Sequence record: NC_100331.1
Reading direction: 5' to 3' (one strand)
DNA from: Escherichia phage vB_EcoS_HASG4
Length of the DNA stretch: 64,000 bases
Below are positions 20,318-63,190 of the stretch, piece after piece. The notes under the pieces were generated by a model. The model searched no databases, was not told the origin of the DNA, and was given only the letters and a program-made list of their open reading frames with translations. Positions within the stretch are counted from its first letter, which is position 1; each line of letters opens with the position of its first letter. Made by a program: the position numbers and the translations under genes.

Positions 20318-21295
20318 ATGAGAATATTATTTAGTGCTGATCATCATATCAAACTAGGACAAGATAAAGTTCCAAAGGAATGGCAGAAGCGTCGTTTCCT
20401 GATGCTAGGAGAACGGTTAAATGATATATTCCATAATCATAACTGTGATCTTCATATTGCTGGTGGTGATATTCTTGATGTTGCCGACCCGTCGTCAGAA
20501 GAAATAGAACTGCTTGAACAGTTCATGTCAAGACTTGACCACCCAGGTAAAATCTTTACTGGAAATCATGAAATGTTAACTAAAACGATTTCATGTCTAT
20601 ATCATTATGCAGGAGTTATTAATAAGGTAACGAGTGGTAAGTGGGAAGTAATTACCAAACCATATCGTTCCCCTGAATTTGATATTGTTCCGTATGATGA
20701 GATCCATAAATCCAAATGGAAACCGTCTGAATCAAAACTATGTTTCACGCATGTTCGTGGTGAAATCCCTCCACATGTAAAACCAGAAATTGATCTAACT
20801 AAGTATAACTGTTATGATACTGTAATTGCTGGCGATTTACATTCTTATACTAATAGCCAGACTATCGGATCTACTAGACTTCTCTACCCAGGGTCTCCAT
20901 TAACTACAACGTTCCATAGAGAACGCACAAAAGGTACAAATGGTTGCTTTATCGTTGATACCGACACATTAAAAGTAGAATGGATTGAACTAGGTGATTT
21001 ACCACAACTGATTCGTAAAACAATCGGAGCCGGTGAAGAGATGGAACCTAGTGATTATGATCGTGTAGTCTATGAAGTTACTGGTGACGTTGTTCAATTA
21101 AAGTCTATCAAAGACTCTGATTTATTAGATAAGAAGATTAACCATCGAGTTACTAAAGACGCTAAGTTAAATCTTGTTGATCTTGATATGTTAGGTGAAC
21201 TTGAACTTTACTTCCGTGAAGTCGAGAAGCTATCTCAAGGCGACATTGATAGAATCTTGGCTAGAGCTGCGAAATATGTCAAAGATTACAATTAA
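20318..21295 (+). CDS. SbcD/Mre11-like metallophosphoesterase nuclease subunit
   Basis: Calcineurin-like motifs DHH (FSADHHI), GD (AGGDILD), GNHE (FTGNHEM), GDLHS. Confidence 0.8.
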   Translation: MRILFSADHHIKLGQDKVPKEWQKRRFLMLGERLNDIFHNHNCDLHIAGGDILDVADPSSEEIELLEQFMSRLDHPGKIFTGNHEMLTKTISCLYHYAGVINKVTSGKWEVITKPYRSPEFDIVPYDEIHKSKWKPSESKLCFTHVRGEIPPHVKPEIDLTKYNCYDTVIAGDLHSYTNSQTIGSTRLLYPGSPLTTTFHRERTKGTNGCFIVDTDTLKVEWIELGDLPQLIRKTIGAGEEMEPSDYDRVVYEVTGDVVQLKSIKDSDLLDKKINHRVTKDAKLNLVDLDMLGELELYFREVEKLSQGDIDRILARAAKYVKDYN

Positions 21296-28100: not shown

Positions 28101-29267
28101 TTTGTTATCGCCACGTACTTCGGAGTACAACCTGTAGCGTGCCCTCTGTGCACCTGAACTATTGTTTAAATATCCGCTTATAATACCAGAGGCTGCTTGG
28201 GCATTATCGGACACATTTACTAAATTAACATTCGCAAATTGAGGGTTATTGAGCGCTCCTAGACCAATTCTAGTTCTGTATGCATCAGAGGATTCAGGTG
28301 CGTAAAAGGCAGACCATGTAGACCATACAGATTTGGCAGAATCATACCACCTAGAAAAATAGTAGTCTTGTGTATTATATGGTCTATATATTTGGTGACA
28401 ACCATCTACTGTATTAGCAGCATTTTTTATTACCTCCAGTGATCCTGCTGCTCTAACTGGATAACCTTTTTCTGCTGTAGCAAGGGCATTAGCGGACTGA
28501 TAATAAAAACCGGCCTGACCCCCTCTAAGAGTATCTAAATTAGTATCATCTAGGTTTACTCTTGATTGATGGAATACTTCTAGATTAAGGCGAGCGGCAG
28601 ATTTATTAGGTATATCATCTAAATTTTGGGATTTAGAAAGAAAATTACTAGGAGCAACTATATCCGCATATTCCTTAGCCTTTAACTCGCTAGCCTTTGC
28701 ATTGGTCTCAGAAGTTTTAGCTGCTATTTCACCAGCCTTTGCCTTAGTTTCTGAAGTTTTAGCAGCAGATGCAGACGCAGCAGCATTAGTTTCTGAGGTT
28801 TTTGCTGCTGAAGCAGATGCAGCCGCAGCAGCTTTACTACTATTAGCATTAGTCTCAGAAGTTTTAGCAGCTGTCTCACTAGCTTTTGCATTGGTTTCTG
28901 AAGTTTTAGCAGCTGTTTCACTAGCTTTTGCATTGGTTTCTGAAGTTTTTGCAGCTTTAGCACTATTAGCAGAAGCAGTAGCAGAAGAAGCAGACTGAGT
29001 TGCAGATTGCTGGGAAGATGCTGCAGAAATTTCTGCCTCATTCTCAGAATCTTTAGCATTTAGTTCTGATTGCTTTGCATTGATTTCTGATTGTTTAGCT
29101 GCTGCAGCTGATGCTTTAGAGGATTCTATTGCAGTAGTTAGCTCACCAGCAGTGATAGAACTAATAGAATTAGAAAGCACAACTGTATACTTAGGATATT
29201 TACTTGCAGTTATACTATTCTGGTCCATAGTGACCATTTGCTGTAGAATTATTTTAGTTATAGCCAT
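25191..29267 (-). CDS. ltf: L-shaped tail fibre protein (pb1-like) with C-terminal intramolecular chaperone domain
   Basis: 1358 aa; C-terminal SDRDLKKNIQEI...GYTYNFK is the autoproteolytic chaperone signature (S74-like); N-terminal AKTSETNAKASETAAK tandem repeats. Confidence 0.8.
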   Translation of the reverse strand: MAITKIILQQMVTMDQNSITASKYPKYTVVLSNSISSITAGELTTAIESSKASAAAAKQSEINAKQSELNAKDSENEAEISAASSQQSATQSASSATASANSAKAAKTSETNAKASETAAKTSETNAKASETAAKTSETNANSSKAAAAASASAAKTSETNAAASASAAKTSETKAKAGEIAAKTSETNAKASELKAKEYADIVAPSNFLSKSQNLDDIPNKSAARLNLEVFHQSRVNLDDTNLDTLRGGQAGFYYQSANALATAEKGYPVRAAGSLEVIKNAANTVDGCHQIYRPYNTQDYYFSRWYDSAKSVWSTWSAFYAPESSDAYRTRIGLGALNNPQFANVNLVNVSDNAQAASGIISGYLNNSSGAQRARYRLYSEVRGDNKEWVTIHLQSDTNTNKYAGLSIDGNFQINGNFIGNAISLSDVATSKVNLKIDRLDQWGSETWVYNASKTMRLGLTDNSWGAYSDTEKRWIPLDVSHGGTGGNNTSDARRNLEVMYRRFSTLTGQNLNDLNGDYAGFYYQSLSANATTARNYPIQEAGNLMVLQNSANGTPGCCQIYITFSSNRIYERSYNPGTSTWSPWGSILNSYDPSYCRQLIELGSQHAPLFAGLALTGYSDSTVAAGGIINSYLRATDGTQRVRMRLYPEKLAEGVAAATLQIMGEDTGPSYKTFQFKNNGQLLVPNELNADTIAVRNLNTTQQNLGIPTTGFMGAYQTINAPAGAVDGKYYPVIFYTGGTNGNGVLPVPISVRTPGRSASHEMNNNVFSGYVTCGGWSDSINIAYGVFTAYDPRELGILCIKGSNKDYAQHIAVYVHYKAFPVHVMTDPKVVINVPTEDYVLGTNGVKFKFGVTDAGDGNAEGNVSNILNFTGGGSGFYSNHPFRSGLSPNFALTNNLSTGDAFSATAPSFTFNGSVVGANSFSARGDAVTKNTYTSQLVNSADAIVGQSEFRATEEAGQIIVRDMSSSASHKFFNFNKDGTFSAPSGILSSTGVDWNTQHNTVNKFYGIAGQVNSPENNVVFGGVHIGFSGNYATQLAGRGNRYYLRSIESGTIGAWNRIITDQYADFKVPIFIYKNGEALTLKSSVNDTSESGYLAGRTANNTRMWLFGKTDSSKSVTLSNEMVGAYFTVSDNIVLRTPSYNGGIFVDGSGVSVRRSNGREFKYENNMTAARNGSILLWGNTTGRPTVVECKLDNGYLWYAQENSDGSRVFNINGNAEARAFNQTSDRDLKKNIQEIPNATQSIRKISGYTYNFKDDDMPYAGVIAQEVMEVLPEAISGFTRYTELAGATVDGEPLMGEERFYSVDYGAVTGLLVQVSKESDSRITALESEVSDLKKQIADLTLVVNSLLANR

Positions 29268-44113: not shown

Positions 44114-45490
44114 TTAAGCGGTAGCGTAAGCACCGGATACAACACCATTACTAAAGTAACGTTGCAGGTTAACACGCTGAGTAACGTAATACGCATCACG
44201 CTGTTTACCAGCTTGGCGCTCACGTTCAACAGTGACAGCGCGCTGACGTGGCATTACGAAGTTATCTTTATAAACGATAACTGCGAACTCTTTCTCAGCC
44301 GCTTTAGCTGGGAAGTACTCAGAAACTACAACCGGCAGACCATAAATACGACCAACCTGACCTTGCAGTTTAACAGCATCGTTACCAACCTGTGCAACAT
44401 CCTGCCATTCTTCATCTTCCAGAAGGTCATAGTAAGCATCCATAGATACAATCAGTACCAGTTTGCTCAGTTTCAGACCATGACGACCCAGTTTACGACG
44501 CAGTTTAGAGATAGTTTTAGCAGTTACTAGAACAGAACCATCAGCTTTAGCTTCGGTAGTAACTTTAGCACCATCATCTTCAGCCAGTTTCAACAGACCT
44601 TTCGGCTTACCAGTACCATCACCAGTCATGAAAGCTTCTTCGATAGAAACAGCGTGTGCTTCGATCAGACGCTTACGTAGCAGTGGCAGCAGGGAGAAGA
44701 TTGCATCTTCTTCAGTTTCATCAGTAATGAAGGACTTAGCAGCCAGTTTGTAGGTTTTAAAACTAATTTCAGTTAATGTACCTTTAACTTCGTTACCAAC
44801 AGTAGCATCAGTACCGTAGGAACCAGCATCTACCCAAGTAGCTTTTCCAGCTTCAGGTTCAACCAGCATAGTAAGAATTTTGCTGGACATTGGCAGTTCA
44901 TCGAACAGTGCACCAACTACTAACTCTTTCTGCAGGTCACGAAGGATACGGGTAGAGAAAATAGTTTCGTAGTTTTCACTGGAAACCTGTACAGAGGAAG
45001 AAGTATTAACAGCTTTAACGTGGGCCTTACCATGTTCAGTTTCAAATACGTCCTTCTCCATCATATAAGACAAGAGAACTAGTTTTTCAACTTCATCTTC
45101 AAAAGCTTCCTGAGTACCATATAGTGCTTTAGCTACGCTATCACCGACGAATGAGCGGCCTTCACGAGCTGCTAGCAGAGATTTAATTTCATCCTGAAGA
45201 CCAACAATAGTTTCCTGCTGCTTTTCTACAGTCTGTGCAAACAGTTCTGCGCTCTTTTTAGATTTTTCATCCAGGGACTTAACCAGTTCCAGAGCTTGTT
45301 CCAGTTTCTGACGATCTTCGCCAACTGCTTTAGAAACCAAGTCATTCATACGAGCCAGTTCTTTTTCTTCCTGCTCTTTACGCATACGTTCAGCTTCCTG
45401 AGCTTTCTGAGCAGCGGTCAGACCTTCCAGAGATTTAGCCAGATCACCCAGACCAAGTTCTTCTTTCAGCTTATTAATATCAATAGTCAT
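44114..45490 (-). CDS. major capsid protein precursor (HK97-fold)
   Basis: 458 aa; N-terminal coiled-coil scaffold-like delta domain (MTIDINKLKEELG...ELARMND) followed by a capsid core; GGAG SD; adjacent to protease. Confidence 0.8.
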   Translation of the reverse strand: MTIDINKLKEELGLGDLAKSLEGLTAAQKAQEAERMRKEQEEKELARMNDLVSKAVGEDRQKLEQALELVKSLDEKSKKSAELFAQTVEKQQETIVGLQDEIKSLLAAREGRSFVGDSVAKALYGTQEAFEDEVEKLVLLSYMMEKDVFETEHGKAHVKAVNTSSSVQVSSENYETIFSTRILRDLQKELVVGALFDELPMSSKILTMLVEPEAGKATWVDAGSYGTDATVGNEVKGTLTEISFKTYKLAAKSFITDETEEDAIFSLLPLLRKRLIEAHAVSIEEAFMTGDGTGKPKGLLKLAEDDGAKVTTEAKADGSVLVTAKTISKLRRKLGRHGLKLSKLVLIVSMDAYYDLLEDEEWQDVAQVGNDAVKLQGQVGRIYGLPVVVSEYFPAKAAEKEFAVIVYKDNFVMPRQRAVTVERERQAGKQRDAYYVTQRVNLQRYFSNGVVSGAYATA

Positions 45491-45507: not shown

Positions 45508-46140
45508 TTATTCTTTAACGTAGCCTAAAGCTATCGCAAGTTTTTCTAGTTCAGAAAGATTACGTTCTTGAGCTGGGACAGCTTTAGAACTTATTGCAGT
45601 AAAAGATTTACGCCATTCAGTATAATCATGACCATTCATGCTCTTAGCGAGATTGAATGTTGAGTCCTGATTACAAGGTACAGAAACTACCGAGACTTCG
45701 TATAGTTCTAAATCTTTAATAATAAATATATCAGTAGCTTCATCCCACTCTGCATCTAGGCAGCGGAATCCGATACTAAAAGTTTTCAGTACACCGTTTT
45801 TAATTAGCGAAAAGATAGCCGGATCAGAACTTTCATAGATCTCGCATTCTATTTCGAGACCCATTTCAGTAGGGTTAAGATCAATACACTTACCGATTGG
45901 ACGACGATGATCGTGTCCGAAAAGAATAATCGGGTTTTTCATGTAGTTAGTAAGTGCATTAGACGTTTTCCACGCAGAAGCAGGAATTACATCACCAGCG
46001 CGATCTTTACTAATTGTATTAGCGAATCCACGGATTTTTACAACACCTTCTTTGGATTCGCTATCAATAGATTTAATATAAGCATCTAAATGAACGGGTG
46101 CTGATTTTAACTTGTTATAGTCAATAGCAGCTTGTGTCAT
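45508..46140 (-). CDS. prohead protease (HK97-type)
   Basis: 210 aa; ILFGHDHRRPIGK resembles the S78 protease core; located between decoration and capsid genes. Confidence 0.6.
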   Translation of the reverse strand: MTQAAIDYNKLKSAPVHLDAYIKSIDSESKEGVVKIRGFANTISKDRAGDVIPASAWKTSNALTNYMKNPIILFGHDHRRPIGKCIDLNPTEMGLEIECEIYESSDPAIFSLIKNGVLKTFSIGFRCLDAEWDEATDIFIIKDLELYEVSVVSVPCNQDSTFNLAKSMNGHDYTEWRKSFTAISSKAVPAQERNLSELEKLAIALGYVKE

Positions 46141-46143
46141 TTA

Positions 46144-46638
46144 TTAGCCTCCAGGAACAGTAGGATTAACTGTCACAGCACATGTAGTAGAGTCCTTGCT
46201 TACTTGCTTACTATCTGTTACAGTTACTTTATAGGCTCCAGAGTCCCCCGTAGCTGCTGCAGGCTTAGTATATGTAGCTCCTGATGCTTCCGGAATAGGG
46301 GAACCATCTTTAGTCCATGCATAAGTATATGGACCAGTACCACCAGTTGCAGTAACAGAGAGTGTTAATGCTGCTCCCTCTTCAACTGACATGCTAGTAG
46401 TTAAATCTTTAGAAAGAGTTAACGGTGGAGCCGGTGGAGCCGGAGGAACTGCTTTACCATAAGCCTCTACAAATTTCTTCCATACTTTACGGTTAGTATG
46501 CGCAGATGAAAGTCCTAGTTCTCTACGCAGAAAAGCATAGCTAGGAACATATTTATGCGCAGCAACCGTAGCAAAGAAGATATGAGATTCTGGCAGTTTT
46601 TCACCAAAAATGGTCTTTAGACCACTATAATCAATCAT
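46144..46638 (-). CDS. capsid decoration protein with C-terminal Ig-like domain
   Basis: 164 aa; LTLSVTATGGTGPYTYAWTKDGSPI...YKVTVTDSKQVSKDSTTCAVTV is an Ig-like fold signature. Confidence 0.55.
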   Translation of the reverse strand: MIDYSGLKTIFGEKLPESHIFFATVAAHKYVPSYAFLRRELGLSSAHTNRKVWKKFVEAYGKAVPPAPPAPPLTLSKDLTTSMSVEEGAALTLSVTATGGTGPYTYAWTKDGSPIPEASGATYTKPAAATGDSGAYKVTVTDSKQVSKDSTTCAVTVNPTVPGG

Positions 46639-46640
46639 TC

Positions 46641-47387
46641 TTAATCTCCCTCGGTGGAACCTTTAGGTCTACCACCTTCTTGACCAGATACACCTGTTGC
46701 AGAACCAGCGACGTTAGCAGGAATACGGATCTTATTCATCTGCTCATCATCTAAAGGCTCAAGGTTCAGCTCTGAACGAGCTTCGTTACCGGTTATAATA
46801 CCATTATTAACCAATGAGGTTAAATGTTTAGCCTCTGCTTCTTTATCTGGTGTTAATGCTGCGACTTCCTTAGTATTAGGAGTGATCTTATAACCAAAAA
46901 AGAAAGTAAGAGAACTAGTCAGTTTGTTCAGCATAGGAATGATGGTCATATAATAGAACAATTCGATGTTTGGTCGAATATTCGCATTATTACCACCATC
47001 AAGCAGTACTTGCGGAACTCCAAAGGCTAGACAAATAGATTTATTAAATCCTTCGATGTCTTCCTTAAAGTCTAGATCTTTAAAAGAGGATATTTGGGAG
47101 TACGGTTTAGCTTTCATACCACCATCTAGAATCAGGACAGAAGACTGACCCGTACTAGGATTATAATCGAGTTGTAATTCTTCTTGTTTACGCTCACGCA
47201 ATTTCTTGTTCAGGATTTCATCCGTTTCAAGAATAAGACCAATCACGGTTCCGTTATCGAGGAATTTCTCTTTAAAGTTAAGCATCTTAGAACGCTTCTC
47301 AAGAGAATCAATAACAGTAGCAACACGAGATTGTCCAGAAATTTGAGAATTTGTGCCACACACGATGTGCTTATATCCATGAATGGA
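46641..47387 (-). CDS. portal protein, C-terminal in-frame portion; 5' part lies in two other frames up to 47658
   Basis: Portal-like C-terminus (...NGIITGNEARSELNLEPL...) in one frame from 47387; plausible coding continues upstream in a second frame (47602-47372) and a third (ATG 47658 to stop 47584). Confidence 0.55.
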   Translation of the reverse strand, partial: SIHGYKHIVCGTNSQISGQSRVATVIDSLEKRSKMLNFKEKFLDNGTVIGLILETDEILNKKLRERKQEELQLDYNPSTGQSSVLILDGGMKAKPYSQISSFKDLDFKEDIEGFNKSICLAFGVPQVLLDGGNNANIRPNIELFYYMTIIPMLNKLTSSLTFFFGYKITPNTKEVAALTPDKEAEAKHLTSLVNNGIITGNEARSELNLEPLDDEQMNKIRIPANVAGSATGVSGQEGGRPKGSTEGD

Positions 47388-47657
47388 TTAGGTCGTACAT
47401 TTAAGAGAGTGTCTAGAGTCTTTGTCTTGATGCCATTGGCATACGTGACAATATTATATTTATCTCCGACAGTATAAGAACACTCCGCCGCACTATCTAT
47501 AACCATATTAGCAGTTCTATTGAGAATCTCAATCTTGCTATAGGCTTGTCCAGTGGTAAAAAGGCTTACGGTTAGTGCGATGACTAACTGGTTCCATGTC
47601 TCTTATAATACGTTGACCCGGATTTAAACTTTTCAGTAATCCAGCTTTTTAAACCCA

Positions 47658-48110
47658 TTATAAGAACCTTGCGAATCCTGATTTTATTTCAGTCTTGACT
47701 TGTGTCTTTTCTTGAGGATTCTGTAATTTGTCTTTCTGCTTTTGAACCCACGCTTTTTGCTTATTAGCAGAAAATAATGGAGGTTCTTTCGTGTAAACCT
47801 TATGTAATAGTTGGTGATGGTGCTGGCACAATGTTACCACGTCCCTAACTAACTCATGCTCATATTTCTTGTAGAATGCTTCCCTATTTGAAAGGACGAT
47901 ATTCTCATCAGTGAAATCCAGCTGGAGTTCTTTAGCAAATTTTTTTATTAGCTGAGATATAGTATGATAATGGTGAAGTTCTAGGTCTTCACTACTACCA
48001 CATATAGCACAGCAACCATCCTTACTATACCTAGATTTTATACCATCCCTCATTATGGAAATGGCATCACGTTTGTACTTAGTATTAGTGGCCATAATCC
48101 TCCAATCCAA
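47658..48110 (-). CDS. HNH endonuclease
   Basis: CCAICG...LELHHYH...N...LCQHHHQLLH is an HNH motif; stop overlaps the portal ATG in a TAATG junction. Confidence 0.7.
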   Translation of the reverse strand: MDWRIMATNTKYKRDAISIMRDGIKSRYSKDGCCAICGSSEDLELHHYHTISQLIKKFAKELQLDFTDENIVLSNREAFYKKYEHELVRDVVTLCQHHHQLLHKVYTKEPPLFSANKQKAWVQKQKDKLQNPQEKTQVKTEIKSGFARFL

Positions 48111-48759
48111 AGCTACTTAGAAAGATTACTATATCCTCAGGAGCAACATTAAAAAATTCCGTGCTTCCTGTAAAATTAGAAAACCCACAGTTTTTATTAT
48201 AATATTCTCTGTGAACTTCCTTTTCTAAATCTAAAGCAGTCTCTCTATCTGGCAGATGATACATGGTGAACAAGTGTAGGTCAGAAAATCCAGATTCTCT
48301 TTTAACTTCATTCAGCCGTTTCTCAGGGTATAAGCTTATGCCTACTTTAGTACCACTAGAGGAGGACATGATATAGAGGAATCCGCCATTCTCCCACTTA
48401 AGAGAACAATAAGGACATCTCTTACCTTGAGTCAATCCATCTAAGGTAATGAAACAGTCATGCCCATTATTGCAGCGTAGATGTAGTTTTGTTTTAGCAT
48501 TAGTATAGCTGCTTAACAGAGTATACCCTATATTAGATATTCTGTTACTAACTTCATCTAACGATATTGTATTATTGGAGCAGTGTGGACAACCTCTCCT
48601 CATATGGAGTATAGAATGTGGTGTTGCTTCCCAAACGTGTGCTCTCTGGCATTTAAATACTGTTTTTGTACGTTGGTTTACATATTCACCGACAATTTGG
48701 ATTCCACGATCAGCTAATCTAATATTTATATCTTTTATTGTTAGCTTTTGTCGACCCAT
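48085..48759 (-). CDS. T5orf172-domain (GIY-YIG-like) protein with N-terminal zinc-finger-like region
   Basis: GGFLYIMSSSSGTKVGISLYPEKRL...GSTEFF matches the T5orf172 pattern; N-terminal CPHCS; AGGAG SD. Confidence 0.6.
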   Translation of the reverse strand: MGRQKLTIKDINIRLADRGIQIVGEYVNQRTKTVFKCQRAHVWEATPHSILHMRRGCPHCSNNTISLDEVSNRISNIGYTLLSSYTNAKTKLHLRCNNGHDCFITLDGLTQGKRCPYCSLKWENGGFLYIMSSSSGTKVGISLYPEKRLNEVKRESGFSDLHLFTMYHLPDRETALDLEKEVHREYYNKNCGFSNFTGSTEFFNVAPEDIVIFLSSFGLEDYGH

Positions 48760-48930: not shown

Positions 48931-50247
48931 TTATTTACCACGGGAAATAGAGTAAATTCCATAGCGCAGCGCATCACAAAGGTGAGAGTTAGCATCATGA
49001 CGTGGTTTTTCACGCGATAATTTCTCTTCACCTTCTTGGAAGTCCCACTTATAGTTCTGCAATGCATGAATTAAGGAGGAACATGAGGCATCCACAATAA
49101 TCTTACCCTGCTGGAATAACGCTTGCAAGCATGCTAGACCATCTAGGACAGATTTTTTAGCTGGAGCCGATGCAATTTCATGCTCATAAGCTAAGTCCTG
49201 GCGGAACTGAGCTGCTGCAGAGTCAACAAAAATACGATCAACTTTATAACGATCTATACAATGCTGAATATAAGCAGCATGCTGAGCTGTAGTTTTCTCC
49301 GCCTGCTGGTATTCTTCTAATACATAGTAAGTATCCGTATCGTAATGATATTTAATAGTAAGAACTGCTGTAGGGTCACGATAACCAACGTCAATACCAA
49401 GCAACGTTTCGAATGCTTCATCATCTTTAAAGAAGTGACGCATACCTTTGAGGTCTTTAACATGATCGATAGCATTAAAGGTATCAAAGATCTGGCCTTC
49501 GAATACAGAGAAGTCAGCCTCGTATTCCTGGCGGAAGTAGTTTTTACTAACTGTACGACGTGCTTCCTCAATGTCATTCAGATCAGCACGAGGATTATCA
49601 CGGTATGTACCATGAATAGACACCCAGTTAGGCAACGTATCATCAAATCCGTAGGCGTAAAACTCTTTAAACCAGTTACCTCCACGAGGTGTGGAAATAA
49701 ATAGAGCTTTAGAATTAGGTTTATCTAGAGTAGGACGCAGCTGAACCCTAAAAGCATCACCACCCACATCGGAAATTGCCGCCTCGTCAAAGATGATAAA
49801 ATCATACGAACGTCCAACTGCGGAGTCAGCCTGAGCCGCGGAAGCTAGTTTAAATAGAGAACCATTAGCTAACTCAATCTCTTTATCTTTAGCGTTTTCA
49901 CGTTCGGTTTGTAGACCATACTTCTTAATAAGACCACGAATCTGAGACCATCCGATATTGGCCAGTGAGTAGTTAGGGGCAACTACTAGTACCTTCACAT
50001 TAGGTTCCAGCAATTTTAGGAACCCAAGTGTATACGCTATAAAAGATTTACCTACACGACGTGATACACACGCCGTTACAAAACGATGTCTAGGGTCTTC
50101 TAGGGCATTGATAATTGCTATTTGAGGGCCGTTAGGTGTAATACCCTCTTGTGCTAATATTCCAGAAACAGGTAGACGGAAGAAACGTTTGTCTATTCCG
50201 AAATCAATAACATCTACTGTATTAACATAGGGTCTTGATACTTCCAT
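48931..50247 (-). CDS. terminase large subunit
   Basis: Walker A VSRRVGKS, Walker B DFIIFDEAA, C-terminal RNaseH-like nuclease region; 438 aa. Confidence 0.85.
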   Translation of the reverse strand: MEVSRPYVNTVDVIDFGIDKRFFRLPVSGILAQEGITPNGPQIAIINALEDPRHRFVTACVSRRVGKSFIAYTLGFLKLLEPNVKVLVVAPNYSLANIGWSQIRGLIKKYGLQTERENAKDKEIELANGSLFKLASAAQADSAVGRSYDFIIFDEAAISDVGGDAFRVQLRPTLDKPNSKALFISTPRGGNWFKEFYAYGFDDTLPNWVSIHGTYRDNPRADLNDIEEARRTVSKNYFRQEYEADFSVFEGQIFDTFNAIDHVKDLKGMRHFFKDDEAFETLLGIDVGYRDPTAVLTIKYHYDTDTYYVLEEYQQAEKTTAQHAAYIQHCIDRYKVDRIFVDSAAAQFRQDLAYEHEIASAPAKKSVLDGLACLQALFQQGKIIVDASCSSLIHALQNYKWDFQEGEEKLSREKPRHDANSHLCDALRYGIYSISRGK

Positions 50248-53858: not shown

Positions 53859-54593
53859 TTAGGCAACTTTTAATTTCTCAATATATTGTTGCGGGCTGCA
53901 ACTATATTCTGCGCGTTCTTCCTCGGTCATACTTTCCCAACATAATTGCAGGCGGTCGGCTAGAAATTGATAATCATTATCATCCTCAAGAGATTCATCA
54001 ATAAAGGTTTCACCTATCAATGTAACCCCAATCGATAGAATATCGTTAATAGCTTGCGCGTCCAGCGTTTTAAATCCGTATGATGCCGCCGCTGATAGTA
54101 CGCCTTTATGATCATCAATCATCGTAAAATCAGCGTTAGGATATAACTGTTTAAATAGCTCAAAATAATGGCTTTTATAAATAGCGTCTTTACTGTGGTA
54201 TATTTCGCTAACTTTATCAGCTTCAAAATATTTGTGTAGTGTATCGCGGGAAAACACGCGGATATTGCTTTTATCACGACCGCGCAAGCCTTGTTTGCGC
54301 AAGAAATAATAATCCGACTTGCTCATCAATCGAGCGGTGCAAATAATGTTTAACGTGTTAACGTCATTCATGCACTGGCGCATATATGTAACAAGCGGCA
54401 ATAGTGTATCTTGCATTATTAAATCATGTTTGCAGGCTTCATTTTTATACTTATTTAAATCTAAATTGCCCTCACTATCAAAGCAAGGCGCTACACGATG
54501 GAAAGAGTTAATGATAGTGCCATCCAGATCCCAAATCATGACGCGGGAAATATGTGGGAAGCTGCGGGAAATATTCATAATAGCTTTATTCAT
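53859..54593 (-). CDS. dmp: HAD-family 5'-deoxyribonucleotidase (dmp-like)
   Basis: N-terminal MIWDLDGTIINS carries HAD motif I DxDGT; 244 aa, the size I recall for T5 Dmp. Confidence 0.6.
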   Translation of the reverse strand: MNKAIMNISRSFPHISRVMIWDLDGTIINSFHRVAPCFDSEGNLDLNKYKNEACKHDLIMQDTLLPLVTYMRQCMNDVNTLNIICTARLMSKSDYYFLRKQGLRGRDKSNIRVFSRDTLHKYFEADKVSEIYHSKDAIYKSHYFELFKQLYPNADFTMIDDHKGVLSAAASYGFKTLDAQAINDILSIGVTLIGETFIDESLEDDNDYQFLADRLQLCWESMTEEERAEYSCSPQQYIEKLKVA

Positions 54594-54672
54594 TTGTTAC
54601 GTTCTCCATTAAAGGGATTAGATTAATTCAGCATTACCCGCTATTTATAAGCGGGTAATAATAAATTAACTA

Positions 54673-55068
54673 TTAAAGACCATAAGCCAACGCATCAGCG
54701 ATAAAACTAACATCCTCACCGGATACGCTGGAACGAATCCCGGCACAAGTATATACCTTTGCGCTGATCAATTGATCATCGAGGCAAGCGGGGCAAGGCG
54801 CAACCACTGCGAAAGCTAAACCGGATTTTACCGCGTCAATAATAATTGTTTCCTGCTTCATCGTGTCAACATAAACACCTTTTGCTTTAATATGGCTGGT
54901 TAGTTTACCTTGCATATATGCAAACGTTGTAACTTGCATTGCATCATTGAAATCTAACAATTCATCAATAACGTGCCCCGCCTCGACGTGGTAACGTTCA
55001 CCATTAGAATAAACCAGAACAATGGAAGACTGAGCGCGGTCAAATGGAATGCGATTAGATTTAGCCAT
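54673..55068 (-). CDS. hypothetical protein
   Basis: Intact ORF with the conserved leader upstream; contains HVE and PCPAC but with non-canonical spacing. Confidence 0.4.
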   Translation of the reverse strand: MAKSNRIPFDRAQSSIVLVYSNGERYHVEAGHVIDELLDFNDAMQVTTFAYMQGKLTSHIKAKGVYVDTMKQETIIIDAVKSGLAFAVVAPCPACLDDQLISAKVYTCAGIRSSVSGEDVSFIADALAYGL

Positions 55069-55105
55069 GTTTATAACTCCAGTTAGTTTAATAAGGGGGT
55101 TTAAT

Positions 55106-55363
55106 TTACTTGATAATAATCTGCATTTGATATGGCGTTAATTCACCATTTACGGGTAAATTATTATCACTCAACCACTCATAAAAAGCGTCATCATCGT
55201 CAAAGGGAACAATATCATTATCACGATAATCGACCGTAATAATCCCATCTGTATTAGTTTTGGCGGCTAGGATAGGTCCGAAGCTGTAAACTTTATCGGA
55301 TTCCATTTCATCCGGTGAAATAAATGCTTTTTCGTCCAGCGTTTTGGGTAATGTAACTTTCAT
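55106..55363 (-). CDS. hypothetical acidic protein
   Basis: 85-aa ORF, Asp-rich. Confidence 0.35.
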   Translation of the reverse strand: MKVTLPKTLDEKAFISPDEMESDKVYSFGPILAAKTNTDGIITVDYRDNDIVPFDDDDAFYEWLSDNNLPVNGELTPYQMQIIIK

Positions 55364-55420
55364 TCTAATTTAGCTCCTGTAATAGCGGCTATATTTCAAG
55401 CCGCTAGGGGAATAATTTAA

Positions 55421-57085
55421 TTACGCGAAAAATTTACCATTCTTAAAGTCAATCAAGGTGCGCTGACCGTTTGCATAGGTAATAACATGCGTTTGTGTCC
55501 AGCTTGACGCGCCAACGTTATAACCCATGTCCAGACTACCAGACACGCCAGCGGTGTATACGCCGCCGTAAATACTGGCGGTATGAGTGTGCCCCGTGTT
55601 TAATTTGCCCAATTTCTTAAACTGTTTCGGATTGCCACGGCTGCCGTTTATGCCGTTGTGACCGTGTACGCCGCATTCAATGCCTGCAATCTTGAAAGAT
55701 TGATCAGTGGTCAGAAAAATAGCGTTAAACTCACAACCTGCAACCTTACGCAGCGCATAATCTAGCACGTTGAAAGTATCGTCTTTTTCTGCAATAGCTC
55801 CATAAATCGCAGCATTAAGGCGGTGATATAGTTCCGCGTTTGCTGGGTCGTCTTTAATGTTAGCATTACGATCATCCAGCCAACGGGATAGCGCCAAATC
55901 GTGGTTTGATTCAACAATGATCGTTTGAGCAAAATCGCGCTCCATCGATTCCAGCACGCGCCCGGTATCGATAAGATCATCCAGAACTTTATCACGTCCG
56001 GCGGCGTATTGTTTCGCTAGGAATACACCGGAGGCACGATTATGATGATTGCGTGATGTAAAATCATGCACGTCATGGACGAATTGATATTTTGGCTTGA
56101 GAATATCAAGCAAGCTATTTTCCCCAGCCCATGATGCAACGGCGCAAGCGTCATCCAATTTTTCGGCGTGGACGTCGCCATATTGTAAACCTAAAACGTG
56201 CCCCGATGTTTCATAGCATCCGGCGGGAGTAGCGCAAACATTCAGATCATAAAATACGCCGCTTTCATCCATCGTTTCAAGCTGGCGAACAAAAAATTCT
56301 CCGTCTTCGTCGAACTCGACAATAAGCGCACCGAAGTTATGCAGCGCCTCGGCCTTTTGTCCTGCTTTCTGCTGGATGTAGTTTTTTAACGTTGCCGTTC
56401 CGGTTGAATACATACGGCGCACAATTTCACCTTTTAAAGCTGGCACGCTTTCAGCGGTAATTTTAGCCGCTCCGATTGCCAGACCTTCGAGATTAAGCGC
56501 GGTTGCAGTTTCAGCGAATCCAGAAAGCGGATAATCTGCGGTGGGCAAAACATTAATTTCAGCCATGAAAGCAAAACGGCGATTGTTTAAAAATACGTTT
56601 TTGCTGCAAATATATTTATCAAACGCAGAATCATATTTGATTCCGTCTGCCCCTTCCCCATTTTGAAAACCGTTTTTATTATAAATATACTTAGAAACAA
56701 GCAAATCAGCGCCAATAAATTGGGCATATTGTTCAAGCGAGGCTAAAAAGTTTTTATGCGGGAAAGTATTATTCTGAATCGATGTAATAATAAAGCGTTT
56801 GCCTTGTTTTACTTCCCATTGCTCCACCGTGCTAGAAATAACTCCAGCGGCTTCAGGGCGGTCATCGTTTTTTATGGCTTTTGCTGTTTTTGCCGCTTTT
56901 GGTTTCGCTGGTTTATTTGCTTCCAACCAGTCGCAGATAGCGGTCGAGTGTTTTGTAGTATCGTATACCGCTTTTGATATATCGTCGCAGACTTCCAGTT
57001 TAGTAGCGCGCAGACGTTTACCATAGAAATTAAAGTCAGCGGCAAGGTTGAGAATCTGGGCTTGTTTTTCTGCGGAAATAATCAT
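55421..57085 (-). CDS. A1: A1-like pre-early protein, calcineurin-like metallophosphoesterase
   Basis: Phosphoesterase-type motifs GDVH, SNHD, GHTHT; 554 aa, close to what I recall for T5 A1; conserved leader upstream. Confidence 0.6.
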   Translation of the reverse strand: MIISAEKQAQILNLAADFNFYGKRLRATKLEVCDDISKAVYDTTKHSTAICDWLEANKPAKPKAAKTAKAIKNDDRPEAAGVISSTVEQWEVKQGKRFIITSIQNNTFPHKNFLASLEQYAQFIGADLLVSKYIYNKNGFQNGEGADGIKYDSAFDKYICSKNVFLNNRRFAFMAEINVLPTADYPLSGFAETATALNLEGLAIGAAKITAESVPALKGEIVRRMYSTGTATLKNYIQQKAGQKAEALHNFGALIVEFDEDGEFFVRQLETMDESGVFYDLNVCATPAGCYETSGHVLGLQYGDVHAEKLDDACAVASWAGENSLLDILKPKYQFVHDVHDFTSRNHHNRASGVFLAKQYAAGRDKVLDDLIDTGRVLESMERDFAQTIIVESNHDLALSRWLDDRNANIKDDPANAELYHRLNAAIYGAIAEKDDTFNVLDYALRKVAGCEFNAIFLTTDQSFKIAGIECGVHGHNGINGSRGNPKQFKKLGKLNTGHTHTASIYGGVYTAGVSGSLDMGYNVGASSWTQTHVITYANGQRTLIDFKNGKFFA

Positions 57086-57183
57086 GGTAATAAAACTCCA
57101 TTAAAGGGATTAAAAAACGTTTGTTATTGGCAAATATTGCCAAATATAACGCCTATTATTTGAGGCGTTATAATTTGCAATAT

Positions 57184-57399
57184 TTAACTAATCGGCATCA
57201 GGCTAGAACTAACACCACAAGCAACGGCGGCAATAAAACAAATAAGACCTAAACGCTTTGCTAACTTAGATTTACGTTTAAAATAATATGAATCCAGATC
57301 ATTTTGGAAATAAGCAAACAATAACGAGGCCGCTACAATAAATAATCCTAGAATGAGGGATTCAGTAGGGTAAAAGATCATTTTAATAACTCCAGTCAA
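57184..57399 (-). CDS. small membrane protein (two hydrophobic segments)
   Basis: 71-aa ORF between the A2-like and A1-like genes. Confidence 0.35.
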   Translation of the reverse strand: MTGVIKMIFYPTESLILGLFIVAASLLFAYFQNDLDSYYFKRKSKLAKRLGLICFIAAVACGVSSSLMPIS

Positions 57400-57437
57400 A
57401 GGAAATTATAGTGGGGAGTATTCCCCACTAATTAAAT

Positions 57438-57845
57438 TTATTCACCTGCGGCCTGTTTTACTTCATCGGCAACGCCCAATAGTTGCGCCACGGCGTCCAA
57501 CGTTTCTAATTTTGCGCTTTCCAGTGATGCCAGATCGTCAACGTCTTTGATAATACCGGAATCGATGGCATGTTTTGCAATAACGCGCACATAATGCGCT
57601 TTGCGGATAGAACTGCCGCCGCCAACCTTGCGAGGTTTATCGCTTTTCTGATACGCTTTCGCGCTGGTCAATTTTGAGCGAACGGACACGGGAGAAGCCG
57701 CACCTACTGCTTTCGCGATCTCTTTCAAGCCGTCGCTATTTGCGAAATCTAAACCGTTTTCATTGATTAGCTGCTGATACATGGTAACAGCCTGCTGGGT
57801 GTTTTCTTCATTCCAAGAAAATTTTACGGTTTTAACGTTAGTCAT
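57438..57845 (-). CDS. A2: A2-like pre-early protein
   Basis: 135-aa ORF immediately upstream of the A1-like gene; size and position match T5 A2 as I recall it. Confidence 0.45.
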   Translation of the reverse strand: MTNVKTVKFSWNEENTQQAVTMYQQLINENGLDFANSDGLKEIAKAVGAASPVSVRSKLTSAKAYQKSDKPRKVGGGSSIRKAHYVRVIAKHAIDSGIIKDVDDLASLESAKLETLDAVAQLLGVADEVKQAAGE

Positions 57846-57943
57846 GGTAAAAACTCCTATTAGTTTAATTTAAGGGATAAGATTAACATAATGTTAATCG
57901 TTATATACCCCGAACTACTGGGGTATATAAAGTTAACACTAAA

Positions 57944-58195
57944 TTACAAAACAGCTTCCCATTTTTCGTTGCGTTGAACAACCTTTACAACATCGCCGGA
58001 TTTAACGCGAACGCTAAAAACGGTTTTGCCGTTGTTACTGCGTTCCGTTTCAGCGTATACCGCGTCGATTGTATCGAACGGCATAAGCGCCGCACCTTTA
58101 ATGCGTTCGGCCTTTCCGGTTAACTCATCCGTTTTAGTAACGAAAGGAATAAAAACGGATTGACCAATTTTTGGCGCGGTAATAACGTTTTGCAT
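57944..58195 (-). CDS. hypothetical protein
   Basis: 83-aa ORF with the conserved leader and AGGAG SD. Confidence 0.4.
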   Translation of the reverse strand: MQNVITAPKIGQSVFIPFVTKTDELTGKAERIKGAALMPFDTIDAVYAETERSNNGKTVFSVRVKSGDVVKVVQRNEKWEAVL

Positions 58196-58422
58196 AGTAT
58201 AAACTCCTAGTTATTTGGGGATTATTCCGCATTACCTGCTAGAAGGTAGCAGGTAATAAGTAACAATCCGCTCGCCAGTTTAACCAATTTAAAGAACTCC
58301 ACGTAGGCCGCTATATCCCAGTTAGGGGGCGGGATGCATTATGGTAAGCACCGACCGTCAAATTTTATCAAGTTATCGCTCTTATCGAACTGAGTACATC
58401 TTAAAACCTATCGGCTAGGTTG

Positions 58423-58626
58423 TCAAACGGTTTTTTGCAATTTTTTATGATTTTCTTTCAAGTCAATCATAATATTTCGCCAGATCATTTCTAGACCTTG
58501 CTGGCGACCTCTCTTGTACTGCGTGAATCGGTATTTTACCGATCTTTGCGCTACTGTCAACAAATTTTTTGTTTTGCTATCTAGTGCCTTAATAGGCTTG
58601 CCAGTGATCAATAAAGTTTGTTTCAT
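58423..58626 (-). CDS. hypothetical small basic protein (uncertain)
   Basis: 67-aa ORF inside the large intergenic region; weak SD. Confidence 0.2.
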   Translation of the reverse strand: MKQTLLITGKPIKALDSKTKNLLTVAQRSVKYRFTQYKRGRQQGLEMIWRNIMIDLKENHKKLQKTV

Positions 58627-59256
58627 ATCGTCGATTCCTTATAATAGATAAGTTTACCGCCGATAGGCTTTAAGATGTACCCAATTTTTAAAGAGCGTGG
58701 CGGTAAACTTCCCGCCGTGTAGTTCGTCATTGCCGCCCTACGTGATAAATAATAGGGGATTCCCGAAAATGGCGCAACCTTATTTTTGTAAAGAAACGTA
58801 AAGACAAAATTCACCGGACGGCGTGCGGTGACGGCCTAAAATTAAAAGAAACGGGCGCGCGAATACCACAAAACAAAGCAAATAGGCAAGTAATTTTTTC
58901 ATTTATATTTGCTTTCCCCTACTTGACAAAATCTAAAAAGCTCGTGGTAGCGATAAACGGCTTATCCCCTTATGATGGGATGGCTAAAAACTTTATTGCG
59001 TTCTAGGGCGTTTTAGGCGGCTCATTTTCGATTTAACAAATATCTAACAAAAGCAAAATTGAAAAATAGTTGAAAAAGGTCTTGACTTTTAAAAATCAAG
59101 GGGCATTGCATTAATTTATAAAATAAATTAATTGACTTTTATTTGTTGTTGTGTATTAGAAAGATAGCAAACTAATAATTACTAGAATGATAATCATGCT
59201 GGTGGATTGTAACGGCTTAAATTATTAGCAGACTACTAATCCCGGAAAATCTCATT

Positions 59257-59310
59257 AGCCAACTAACTGTTTCATAAGTTATAATATACATATAAATTAA
59301 TGAGAAATAA
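59257..59310 (+). promoter_or_regulatory. promoter-like element of the T5 family (weak -35)
   Basis: GTTATAAT with TATAAT at 59280-59285, then ATACATATAAATTAATGAGAAA. Confidence 0.35.
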
Positions 59311-59419
59311 TAATTATAAGAAAACGTAACCGATAGGAATAATAACTATAAAAATAATCACTACTATAATAATAACTATAAGAAACTATCGGCCTAAGTG
59401 AGAACCACTATCATTTAAG

Positions 59420-59440
59420 TTATCCACAAAGTTATCCACA
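59420..59440 (+). promoter_or_regulatory. two perfect DnaA boxes (TTATCCACA) in direct repeat
   Basis: TTATCCACA at 59420-59428 and 59432-59440, just downstream of an AT-rich repeat tract. Confidence 0.6.
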
Positions 59441-59794
59441 GCACTTTTTGACTTGACACGATATGCGGCGATACAAGGACTTTTGCTCAGACTTACCCAC
59501 AGGTTATCCTACTGTATAAATATACAAGGTAAAAAGATAGTGTTAACAACTGCAATCAATTTTAAGCGGCCTAAATCGCTTTCTAACGAGCAAAACGCTG
59601 TAGGGTAATATTAAAGTAAAGCCTCAACGTGTCGGCCTGGTGGCTTCGCCGTGTTTTGCTCTTTACTATACCGCTGCGCGGTTAGCATAAAAATAAGCGT
59701 TAGGCAAGGAAAATAAAAAGGTAAAATAATATTTGCCCCTAGAAAGAAAATACCTTTATCATTCACTCACCGATTAACGAGGGAGGCCGAACAA

Positions 59795-60787
59795 ATGAGG
59801 CTTTATAAACCAGATAACGCAACCGTCTTAAAAGGTGCATTGCGCAACCTGCTGGATGGTAGCAGAACAACCAGCATTAAACATTTTGTTTTCAATATTG
59901 AAACACTTCATCGTAATTTTCTTGATGATTACGATGCTTATAATATGAATAGTTTTCTACCGTTATATAATCAAGGGGCAACGCTTGTTTTATATAATCA
60001 GGAATCTCACTTGCTTACTAGTCGAGGGCCAGATACTGATTTTATTATAGTGAAAGGCAGTACAGTAAAAGCCTATGATGCGGGGGCGGGCTTAGAAGTT
60101 TTCACGATAGAAAATTATGAGCCTTATGATAAGGATCTTTATGACGTAGAAAATTTTCTCGATTCATTTTGGCGTTATTTATCAATTGGGTGGAATCGGT
60201 CGGATTATGACGGGTATCGTTTTGCGGCTGTAATGGCTTTTGATGATAACGGTAATTTTTTGTTACCGTCGGAATTATACCCGTATGTATATAATGATTT
60301 AATAGAGGAGGCTGGTTTTACTTTCTGGAAAGATGAAGATCAGCCTATTGACAATATAGAAAACCATGCTGTAAATTCTAACACTCAAAGCGTTAACACT
60401 CAAACTACTGAAAACAAAGGAAAAAATACCATGACCAAGATCGCTAATATCGTTGCCGCTAATAAATCCGCTGTTGTAAATGCTGCAAAACTGGAAGCGG
60501 GTAAAATTGCACTGACTCAAATCACGAAAGTAGCGGCTAAAAAAGCGCCGTTTATGATTAAAGGTTATATTGATACGCCGATTGGTCGTGTAGTGATCGC
60601 TAACCTATTGAGTGTAGCGGTTGACCAGTACGCCCCAACTAACCAAAAGGCAAAAGCGGTAGCAGGCGCGGCTATGGAAGCGGCAATGCTGGAAATGGTG
60701 CAAAGTTTTAACATCGCTGAAATGATTGATGAAATGGTAAAAGGTATCGATATTTCTACTTTTACCACTAACACCGAAAGCGAGTAA
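59795..60787 (+). CDS. hypothetical protein
   Basis: 330-aa ORF with GAGG SD; first gene of a rightward cluster. Confidence 0.45.
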   Translation: MRLYKPDNATVLKGALRNLLDGSRTTSIKHFVFNIETLHRNFLDDYDAYNMNSFLPLYNQGATLVLYNQESHLLTSRGPDTDFIIVKGSTVKAYDAGAGLEVFTIENYEPYDKDLYDVENFLDSFWRYLSIGWNRSDYDGYRFAAVMAFDDNGNFLLPSELYPYVYNDLIEEAGFTFWKDEDQPIDNIENHAVNSNTQSVNTQTTENKGKNTMTKIANIVAANKSAVVNAAKLEAGKIALTQITKVAAKKAPFMIKGYIDTPIGRVVIANLLSVAVDQYAPTNQKAKAVAGAAMEAAMLEMVQSFNIAEMIDEMVKGIDISTFTTNTESE

Positions 60788-60852
60788 TAATATTTAGCGG
60801 GGATTATTTCCCCGCTTTACTATTCCCTTGTTAACTAATAGGAGGCTAACTA

Positions 60853-61347
60853 ATGGCTGAGGAAAAATACGGCTTCTCGCTAGGGGAAGTGAGCACGGCT
60901 AAACACGATATGATCATTTTAGTTGATTGTCATACTGGCTATTGCGGGGAAGGGAACACCGAAGAATATTTTGTTCCTGCTGGTACGGATCTGGACGCTT
61001 TAGCTCACGAAATGGCTATGGATAATGCTTCTCGTTTTGGCAGCGATGGCTATGAAGACGAGGATACTGGCGAATGGTATGAAAATGAAAACGTATACGC
61101 AAGTCTTTATCATTATCAGTTAAGTAAATCCGGCACATATGTAAATGGCGGCGATCCTATTAATTCCGTTGTGAAATTAATTATTAAATATGGTGGCGTC
61201 GAGATAATTGATAACAAAGCGGTAATATATGCAAACCGATTAAAACAGCTTGTTTATATTCCTGATAATACCCGATGGGAGGAATACGCTGTTTTGCATG
61301 ACGAATTGAAACGATGTTTCAATATTGAAGCCCTACAAGTAGTCTAA
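60853..61347 (+). CDS. hypothetical acidic protein
   Basis: 164-aa ORF with AGGAGG SD; Asp/Glu-rich. Confidence 0.45.
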   Translation: MAEEKYGFSLGEVSTAKHDMIILVDCHTGYCGEGNTEEYFVPAGTDLDALAHEMAMDNASRFGSDGYEDEDTGEWYENENVYASLYHYQLSKSGTYVNGGDPINSVVKLIIKYGGVEIIDNKAVIYANRLKQLVYIPDNTRWEEYAVLHDELKRCFNIEALQVV

Positions 61348-61452
61348 TGTAAAGTTTTGTAAAGGTCGCCTTTTATGGTGGCCTTTTTTGTTATAATGCC
61401 TTTACACCAAAACGGTGGATTGAAAATTTTCCCAAAAATTTGGAGGCTTAAA

Positions 61453-61683
61453 ATGGTTGCATACTCTTCTGCTAGTCATCTGTTTACCGCGCAAGGCTGG
61501 GTATCTAATCGCGTCATTATTCATGAAATGGTGCAGGAGTTCGGCATTGCTAAAACGTATAATACCATTCAGGAACTATATAACGCCGATAAAATCGATC
61601 AGCAAACGGCTGGCTTTTTGCTGGATACCCTGAAAGCTGAACATTGCACTAAAAAGCAAGCTGCAAAAATTGTCTTAATGTAA
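61453..61683 (+). CDS. hypothetical protein
   Basis: Internal ATG at 61453 with GGAGG SD; the track's 61375 start lacks an SD. Confidence 0.4.
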   Translation: MVAYSSASHLFTAQGWVSNRVIIHEMVQEFGIAKTYNTIQELYNADKIDQQTAGFLLDTLKAEHCTKKQAAKIVLM

Positions 61684-61736
61684 TTAATAACGGGGGGGGG
61701 GTATTATATCCCCCGATAACTAGGAGGCTATCACAA

Positions 61737-61886
61737 ATGGTTATTTTTCGAGCTATTTTAGCGGGTATCTTGGGCGCTATTTTATCGTTATTTGCAATAG
61801 CTTTCGGTGTTCACGCCGTTATTATCGGCGCGGGTATCGCCGCATTTTCTTATCTGCTGGGCTGCATGACTAGTAAAGGAGAATAA
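61737..61886 (+). CDS. small membrane protein (49 aa)
   Basis: TAGGAGG SD 9 nt upstream; two hydrophobic segments; preceded by a G10 tract. Confidence 0.4.
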   Translation: MVIFRAILAGILGAILSLFAIAFGVHAVIIGAGIAAFSYLLGCMTSKGE

Positions 61887-61888
61887 AA

Positions 61889-62101
61889 ATGATTCGTAAC
61901 GTTTCCCTTGCACGTTCGAAAGGCTTTAGGCTGGTGGACGTTAACACGTTCGAGCGTGAAGATTGTAAAATCGAATATGTAGCACGTAACAAAAATGCCT
62001 TTCGTGTTACTGAGAAAAAATTCGACAAGCGCGGCAACGTGATCGCTGAAACAGTTAAACATTTTGCCACCTTTTATGCTGCGTTTCGTGGGGTATTATA
62101 A
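61889..62101 (+). CDS. hypothetical protein
   Basis: 70-aa ORF with GGAG SD, immediately after the previous stop. Confidence 0.4.
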   Translation: MIRNVSLARSKGFRLVDVNTFEREDCKIEYVARNKNAFRVTEKKFDKRGNVIAETVKHFATFYAAFRGVL

Positions 62102-62102
62102 A

Positions 62103-62447
62103 ATGGTTATTTATGAAGGCAACCGCTTTGTTACTAATTGCCGTCCGGCATTACTAGCAAACTACTTAAATCAGCTTTCCCCAGCTTATAAGGGCGTTAT
62201 TAATATTTATGAGGGCAAGGCGCATTATAAAATCAATGCGGTCGTTGCCCGTGAACTAGCGTTTCAATTTTTGACCTTTGCATCTTGTGACGTTCAGGTC
62301 ATGGGTGAGGCATTAATTGCAGAAAATGAAGATGATTTTATTAATATTTTCCGCAAGATATGCACCGAGCGCCTGATCATGAAAGGCGCTTATATTCAAT
62401 CCACTGCGGATAGTATTGAAACAGCGTTTCGAAAGGTGGCACAATGA
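62103..62447 (+). CDS. hypothetical protein
   Basis: ATG at 62103 directly after the upstream stop; 114 aa. Confidence 0.4.
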   Translation: MVIYEGNRFVTNCRPALLANYLNQLSPAYKGVINIYEGKAHYKINAVVARELAFQFLTFASCDVQVMGEALIAENEDDFINIFRKICTERLIMKGAYIQSTADSIETAFRKVAQ

Positions 62448-62602
62448 AAAAGTTTTTAATAGCTGGTATGTTTCCTTTGTTGCCTTATGTAATTTGCTGG
62501 GCTTTATATGCTCATGGTGCTAGTGTTCCCGGTGTGGCTTCATTTGGTGTATCGGCTGGTTTTCTAACCGGACTATTGGCAAGCGTATATTTACGCAAAT
62601 AA
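62444..62602 (+). CDS. small membrane protein (52 aa)
   Basis: ATG overlapping the upstream stop; two hydrophobic segments. Confidence 0.35.
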   Translation: MKKFLIAGMFPLLPYVICWALYAHGASVPGVASFGVSAGFLTGLLASVYLRK

Positions 62603-62620
62603 TTAATAACGGGAGTTATT

Positions 62621-62824
62621 ATGAGCAATAAAATTATTGTAACCAAAATCAGTACAATGGTTGATGTTTTTTACGTGCCCGATACGCCGGAGAATCGGCA
62701 AGCGGTTGAGCGTGGCGAGTATGATAAAGTGATTTATGATCACGATGGTTATTATCAGCATTTGGCGGATTCCTACGGGGAGGAGGAAAAAATCACGCAT
62801 CGACTACCGGAGGAGGATTTATGA
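62621..62824 (+). CDS. hypothetical protein
   Basis: 67-aa ORF with GGGAG SD. Confidence 0.4.
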   Translation: MSNKIIVTKISTMVDVFYVPDTPENRQAVERGEYDKVIYDHDGYYQHLADSYGEEEKITHRLPEEDL

Positions 62825-62925
62825 AACGATGGTTTAATCACTGGTATAAACGGTTTTTAGTACGCCGTCGCAAGTCTAGGCATCAAGATGAGTGGAGGGA
62901 GTGGGCAAAGCGTAACGGTTGCCCA
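62821..62925 (+). CDS. hypothetical small basic protein (uncertain)
   Basis: 34-aa Arg/Trp-rich ORF overlapping the previous stop. Confidence 0.2.
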
Positions 62926-62975
62926 CTACTATAATAATCACGGGGCGCAACTAGTAAGAAGTGCCCCCAATTCTC

Positions 62976-62996
62976 AAATGAGAATCATTCTCATTT
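62976..62996. repeat. perfect 21-bp palindrome AAATGAGAATCATTCTCATTT
   Basis: Read directly; the two 10-bp arms are exact reverse complements around a central C. Confidence 0.8.
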
Positions 62997-63190
62997 GACC
63001 GCGCCCGCGATGATTAGCCTGCTAATGGTTAGGGTGTTACGTGTCGCCTTGTGTGATCGTTAGCGTGCTAACTAATTTTCAAGCCTCCTCCAATTTTCCC
63101 CTTGTTTTAGTATCCCCGCCAAAATTAAACGCGTTAGAATGCGATTCAGGACGTTTTAAGCCTATATTAGAATTATTCACTGCATAGGAA

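Follow-up and report, generated by a model that had tools for sequence, protein, structure and literature searches.

Record-specific lesions in the portal gene of the T5-like phage vB_EcoS_HASG4 are most likely an artefact of sequencing, assembly or finishing

The fragmented portal gene in the genome record of Escherichia phage vB_EcoS_HASG4 is an ordinary orthologue of T5 pb7 that carries record-specific damage, and it presents no new biological feature. We analyzed a 64,000-nt stretch of this record (NC_100331.1; hereafter the window), in which the portal region occupies positions 46641-47658 of the minus strand and is interrupted by two single-nucleotide insertions and a 196-nt deletion. 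All three lesions are private to the window. We infer that they most likely originated during sequencing, assembly or finishing of the genome; the main competing explanation, a recently inactivated gene in the sequenced DNA itself, is less probable and is weighed below together with the weaker alternatives.

The window belongs to a Tequintavirus (T5-like phage) and shows ~99.9% identity to Escherichia phage vB_EcoS_EASG3 (MK373799), with 99.945% identity over positions 1-47364 in a comparison of the whole window. No closer record than EASG3 is present in the 'phages' collection, and the second-best phage record reaches ~94.6% identity over 24 kb only. In the alignment, the end of the window (64000) pairs with the final base (120715) of the EASG3 record; because these last bases coincide, the window is the rightmost 64 kb of its genome, whose deposited sequence has the same terminus as EASG3. 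The portal region lies at its conserved T5 position on the minus strand. Upstream of it are the large terminase gene (48931-50247), a T5orf172-type endonuclease gene (48085-48759) and an intact HNH gene of 145 aa (47658-48095); downstream are the intact pb10 head-decoration gene (46144-46638), which falls within a small patch of mosaicism against EASG3, the prohead protease gene (45508-46140) and the major capsid protein gene (44114-45490), all on the minus strand. The order of these genes is the same in T5, as is the TAATG overlap at the portal start. Among the ORFs of at least 100 aa in the window, the portal is the sole real gene broken relative to EASG3, and the intactness of all the others is as expected of the genome of a viable phage.

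The interval between terminase and portal holds two endonuclease genes (window 47658-48759), with the end of the T5orf172-type gene overlapping the start of the HNH gene by 11 nt. The product of 48085-48759 is of the T5orf172/MUG113 type, with CapR and treble-clef zinc-finger domains. The HNH protein is labelled PF26848 (Phage_T5_Nicking_endo) in the precomputed Pfam annotation of the collection, and gives no match in our local copy of Pfam.

Six-frame translation and tblastn with the EASG3 portal resolve the portal coding sequence into four pieces in three frames of the minus strand, which share 99.6-100% identity with the EASG3 portal. The first piece (47658-47629) comprises codons 1-10 (MGLKSWITEK) and is identical to nt 1-30 of the EASG3 portal gene. 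Its ATG overlaps the stop codon of the HNH gene as TAATG, and translation from it meets a stop codon at 47586-47584, after 24 codons. The second piece (47627-47559) comprises codons 11-33, LNPGQRIIRDMEPVSHRTNRKPF, and the third (47557-47366) codons 34-97 (TTGQAYSK...FMDIST), the latter 100% identical to EASG3. The fourth piece (47363-46641) comprises codons 164-403 and the stop codon, is 99.6% identical to EASG3, and spans the end of the N-terminal wing segment, the stem, the clip, the second wing segment and the crown. These 240 aa match Pfam PF04860 (Phage_portal) significantly, with 118.7 bits against a cut-off of 39.1, over profile positions 125-321 of 321; the intact EASG3 portal scores 172.9 bits over positions 7-321. 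A preliminary description of the region, made from the DNA letters and their open reading frames, saw much of this correctly: portal coding spread over three frames at 46641-47658, an ATG at 47658 within a TAATG junction with the HNH gene, a stop of that frame at 47584, and an ORF open from 47387 down to 46641. It recognized two breaks where there are three, having merged the first two pieces and overlooked the second (47627-47559).

We defined the lesions by a three-way DNA alignment of the window, EASG3 and T5, together with the whole-window comparison with EASG3. The first lesion (47626-47628, minus strand) reads TTT where EASG3 has TT and T5 and the Salmonella phage GSP044 have CT; this single added T moves the reading frame by +1. 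At the second (47558-47562, minus strand), TTTTT stands against TTTT in the relatives, and again one extra T causes a +1 shift. Between 47365 and 47364 (minus strand) lies the third, a blunt deletion of 196 nt that takes out nt 293-488 of the portal coding sequence, hits codons 98-163 (F98-Y163) in the N-terminal wing domain and also alters the frame. The frame changes had been read as two 1-nt losses, but the alignment identifies the upstream pair as 1-nt gains (TT to TTT, TTTT to TTTTT) and the remaining break as a loss of 196 nt. Single-nucleotide corrections near 47590 and 47375, proposed as a way to recover one polypeptide, consequently fail: one extra T has to be taken out at each of two sites and the 196 nt put back in.

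The downstream break had also been attributed to a slippage-prone GT repeat. The string ATCGTGTGTGGCAC is indeed found at 47366-47353, but the break there is the 196-nt deletion and the tract itself is unchanged and unslipped. The GTGTGTG tract (47357-47363, minus strand) encodes codons V164-C165-G166, does not differ among the window, EASG3, T5 and GSP044, and adjoins the right end of the deletion by happenstance only; in 10 further contigs the alignment picks up directly past the 196-nt gap.

Neither microhomology nor a flanking direct repeat occurs at the deletion ends, nor does an inverted repeat or bridging hairpin join them, and the fold z-score is -0.95. Replication slippage or a hairpin as the mechanism of deletion was rejected on these grounds; a blunt deletion of this kind is unlike replication slippage and fits two ends that have been abutted. 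The lesions are also strongly clustered. With three mosaic patches set aside (46048-46658, ~55.3-57.8 kb and ~59.0-59.4 kb), only five indels separate the window from EASG3, and three of these fall within 263 nt in the portal gene. Such clustering has a simulated P of ~5.6e-4 under uniform placement, and as it goes beyond chance it indicates one local cause. Both 1-nt insertions are located on one side of the deletion junction, within 262 nt, and the opposite side is clean. Substitutions relative to EASG3 are lacking altogether in 47364-47700, and the remainder of the portal gene has a single one, at 46658, where the window carries the T5 base. With no substitutions around the lesions there is no evolutionary decay, and we reject long-term pseudogene decay with its relaxed constraint as their explanation.

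The portal gene is an orthologue of T5 pb7, which is already known and has solved structures. The EASG3 portal aligns end to end with T5 pb7 (PDB 9ilp/9imv; DT57C 8hqo; PF04860, HK97-family portal), and the solved portals of T5 (9ilp) and DT57C (8hqo), with 403 and 405 aa, respectively, align to its residues 1-403. Because these alignments begin at EASG3 residue 1, the portal start is the ATG at 47658 and not a codon downstream, which excludes the earlier suggestion that the portal might truly start at the in-frame segment. In the cryo-EM model of the T5 portal, the wing domain comprises residues 11-175 and 278-336 (PMC11313276), and the limits of the wing in the DT57C portal are similar (PMC10713586). 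Of its 165 residues, the N-terminal wing segment has lost 66 in the window. EASG3 has an intact portal of 403 aa, whereas the portal of the window shows no uninterrupted ORF of ~403 aa with a full wing domain: its frame is broken by two 1-nt insertions and it lacks the 196 nt that bear on codons 98-163. With 66 codons lost and the frame altered by the deletion itself, frameshifting is unable to restore the full portal. No full-length pb7 can be produced from the sequence as written, and no combination of ribosomal frameshifts rescues it.

The relatives consistently have the undamaged form of the gene. The lesions are absent from ~430 phage records. With the intact EASG3 gene as the query, a contiguous portal is found in 431 of 440 phage records; with the window as the query, 417 phage records cover the region, and the best 30 of them have a span 185-194 nt longer than that of the window. 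An identical HNH protein is encoded on 23 contigs, of which 10 were fetched. In each of the ten, an intact portal gene for 403 or 405 aa starts at the same TAATG overlap, and all ten hold the 196 nt and have neither extra T. The deletion junction has 0 matches in IMG/VR, in a set of one genome per GTDB species and in the JGI metagenomes. Both insertion contexts likewise have 0 matches in IMG/VR, where the native TTTT context of the second site is found on 24 contigs. We also searched the complete genomes of E. coli for a sibling with the same lesions and obtained no match, and the exact 240-aa portal fragment is not on record in a large protein collection.

We favor an artefact because the phage cannot do without its portal, the remainder of the genome has the appearance of that of a viable phage, and faults of the same kind occur in the deposits of relatives. 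As an essential structural protein, the portal forms the dodecameric DNA channel (PMC11313276). While the terminally redundant genome was being closed or re-oriented, a low-coverage, error-prone end of a contig or read may have been abutted to another without overlap. The actual phage would then possess an intact portal of 403 aa, and the region would be unremarkable. Comparable faults are found in the deposits of two plaque-forming relatives. One is the Tequintavirus GSP044 (OP394141), whose portal is broken by two blunt deletions in an otherwise ordinary genome. These deletions, of 59 nt and 56 nt relative to T5, lie at other positions and are not accompanied by 1-nt insertions, and they represent an unrelated event. 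The GSP044 portal (1201-2302 of OP394141), from a record designated a 'complete genome', is annotated as two 'portal protein' CDS, and GSP044 has no T5orf172/HNH endonuclease pair upstream of the portal. The other is EASG3 itself, in which 4 nt are missing from the D13 gene.

The missing EASG3 nucleotides, TTGC, are present in both the window and T5. In the window they correspond to positions 22071-22074, in a D13/SbcC-like ORF at 21195-23114 (plus strand), and in EASG3 D13 is annotated as two CDS. In the window and T5 the TTGC lies directly 5' of CCGCGC (window 22071-22080), and the CCCGCGC motif by it is designated 'major single-stranded nick 4, 64.7%' in the T5 record AY587007. The private 4-nt lesion of EASG3 at this nick site may be a nick-associated sequencing artefact. 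We considered the same origin for the portal lesions and found it unsupported: there is no GCGC anywhere in the portal gene, so the nick idea does not explain them. Nick-type CCGCGC motifs number 12 in the window against 6.25 expected (window 54280-63004), with 10 of the 12 in the last 10 kb, the terminal-repeat part.

Several features of the record speak against an artefact. The remaining 64 kb is very clean, with only two other indels relative to EASG3 outside the mosaic patches, which shows that the sequencing as a whole was not prone to error. Base-calling errors do not take the form of a 196-nt deletion; misassembly in a de Bruijn graph needs a k-mer common to both ends, and none is present. 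Nor does TT to TTT belong to the classic long-homopolymer errors, and the homopolymer signature is in any case weak evidence, since ~43% of random insertions lengthen a neighboring base anyway. It is because of the clean remainder, the atypical blunt deletion and the weak homopolymer signature that the opposite explanation keeps a substantial minority share of the probability.

According to that explanation, the lesions are real in the sequenced DNA and the genome is a recently inactivated, portal-null one, which we consider possible but distinctly less probable than an artefact. It could be a defective or cheater sub-population accompanied by co-infecting wild type, a mutant grown on a complementing host, or the result of a single error-prone repair event at a double-strand break in the portal gene, with the deletion accompanied by nearby polymerase errors to one side. 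The clustering of three of the five indels points to a single local cause under this explanation too, and the blunt junction without microhomology, together with the one-sided 1-nt insertions, matches end-joining-like repair. The otherwise high quality of the sequence speaks against random sequencing error, and most assemblers would hardly yield a blunt 196-nt deletion without supporting reads. Against these points stands the indispensability of the portal: a portal-null genome is unable to plaque alone, tblastn with the EASG3 portal reveals no second copy of the gene within the window, and the lost 196 nt occur nowhere else in it. Moreover, no other record or contig has any of the three lesions, and there is no sign of the allele persisting or spreading; nor is an assembled consensus normally taken over by a defective minority. 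A natural 'cheater', replicated and packaged through the portal of a wild-type co-infector and abundant enough in the lysate to become the consensus, appears improbable. Of the options raised in the preliminary description, assembly error and a pseudogenised portal thus survive in broad terms, as an artefact and a recent inactivating mutation, and slippage control and recoding do not.

Expression of the portal through programmed frameshifts at the two T runs, slippage at GTGTGTG or both, with dosage set by frameshifting or phase variation, is scarcely credible. The breaks lie near simple tracts, and inspection of the CC-UUU-UU-AC run at 47558-47562 indicates that tRNA-Phe could in principle re-pair after a +1 slip. 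Even with both frameshifts, however, the 196 nt with 66 wing-domain codons would be absent, and the deletion changes the frame as well. The shifts are found in no homologue, so conservation, the hallmark of programmed recoding, fails. Inspection of the sequence reveals no stop or rare codon and no obvious stimulator at either site; the U5 run (47558-47562) precedes a UAC codon, and the first site (AAG UUU AAA) would re-pair poorly. Transcriptional slippage requires longer runs than three or five T. Among the relatives examined, the (GT)3G tract does not vary in length, and the equal number of GT units does not fit a phase-variable repeat. The likeness to the -1 frameshift of the lambda G/GT tail chaperone is superficial and limited to a structural gene that continues in another frame. 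Programmed frameshifts are conserved across relatives, have defined slippery sites and give a complete product; in the portal of the window, the shifts are shared by no homologue and lead to no complete product.

Equally implausible is a functional portal made from the downstream ORF alone (240 aa from GTG 47363, or from a later ATG), with the upstream pieces as a dispensable leader: although this ORF by itself exceeds the Pfam Phage_portal threshold, its match is confined to profile positions 125-321 of 321, the T5 and DT57C structures are of portals of 403 and 405 aa with T5 residues 11-175 forming the larger part of the wing domain, the TAATG-overlap start is present in all relatives fetched (10/10 contigs), GTG 47363 is not preceded by a Shine-Dalgarno-like sequence, and promoter-like matches that might serve an N-truncated portal are near chance level.

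Beyond the portal, the window differs from EASG3 mainly in mosaic patches, which affect the pb10 gene and the terminal-repeat region. The patch at 46048-46658 takes in the pb10 gene together with the 3'-terminal bases of the portal gene. It contains 18 substitutions relative to EASG3 in ~610 nt, against 4 in the other ~47 kb of the alignment, a pattern that resembles an exchange of alleles by recombination. A look-up of the exact pb10 protein in the large protein collection gave no entry. The divergent patches of the terminal repeat are found at 55312-57826 (~200 substitutions) and 59020-59367 (~43), with many small indels, and include a 19-nt insertion at 59349-59367. An A1-like ORF of 554 aa (55421-57085) is intact despite the divergent patch. 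A run of 10 G at ~61692-61701, compared with 9 in EASG3, is the sole indel outside the mosaic patches besides the portal lesions and TTGC. The long tail-fibre gene, an orthologue of EASG3_00160, contains tandem repeats at 28699-28978 with periods of 21, 42 and 147 nt and 78-92% matches.

The importance of the finding lies mainly in quality control. Automated annotation of this record would yield either a pseudogene or two to three 'portal' fragments, and a reader risks mistaking the frame changes for recoding. Nothing here points toward a helper-dependent defective phage. Were sequencing reads to confirm the lesions, the genome would belong to such a phage and would hold modest interest for research on cheating in populations of lytic phages.
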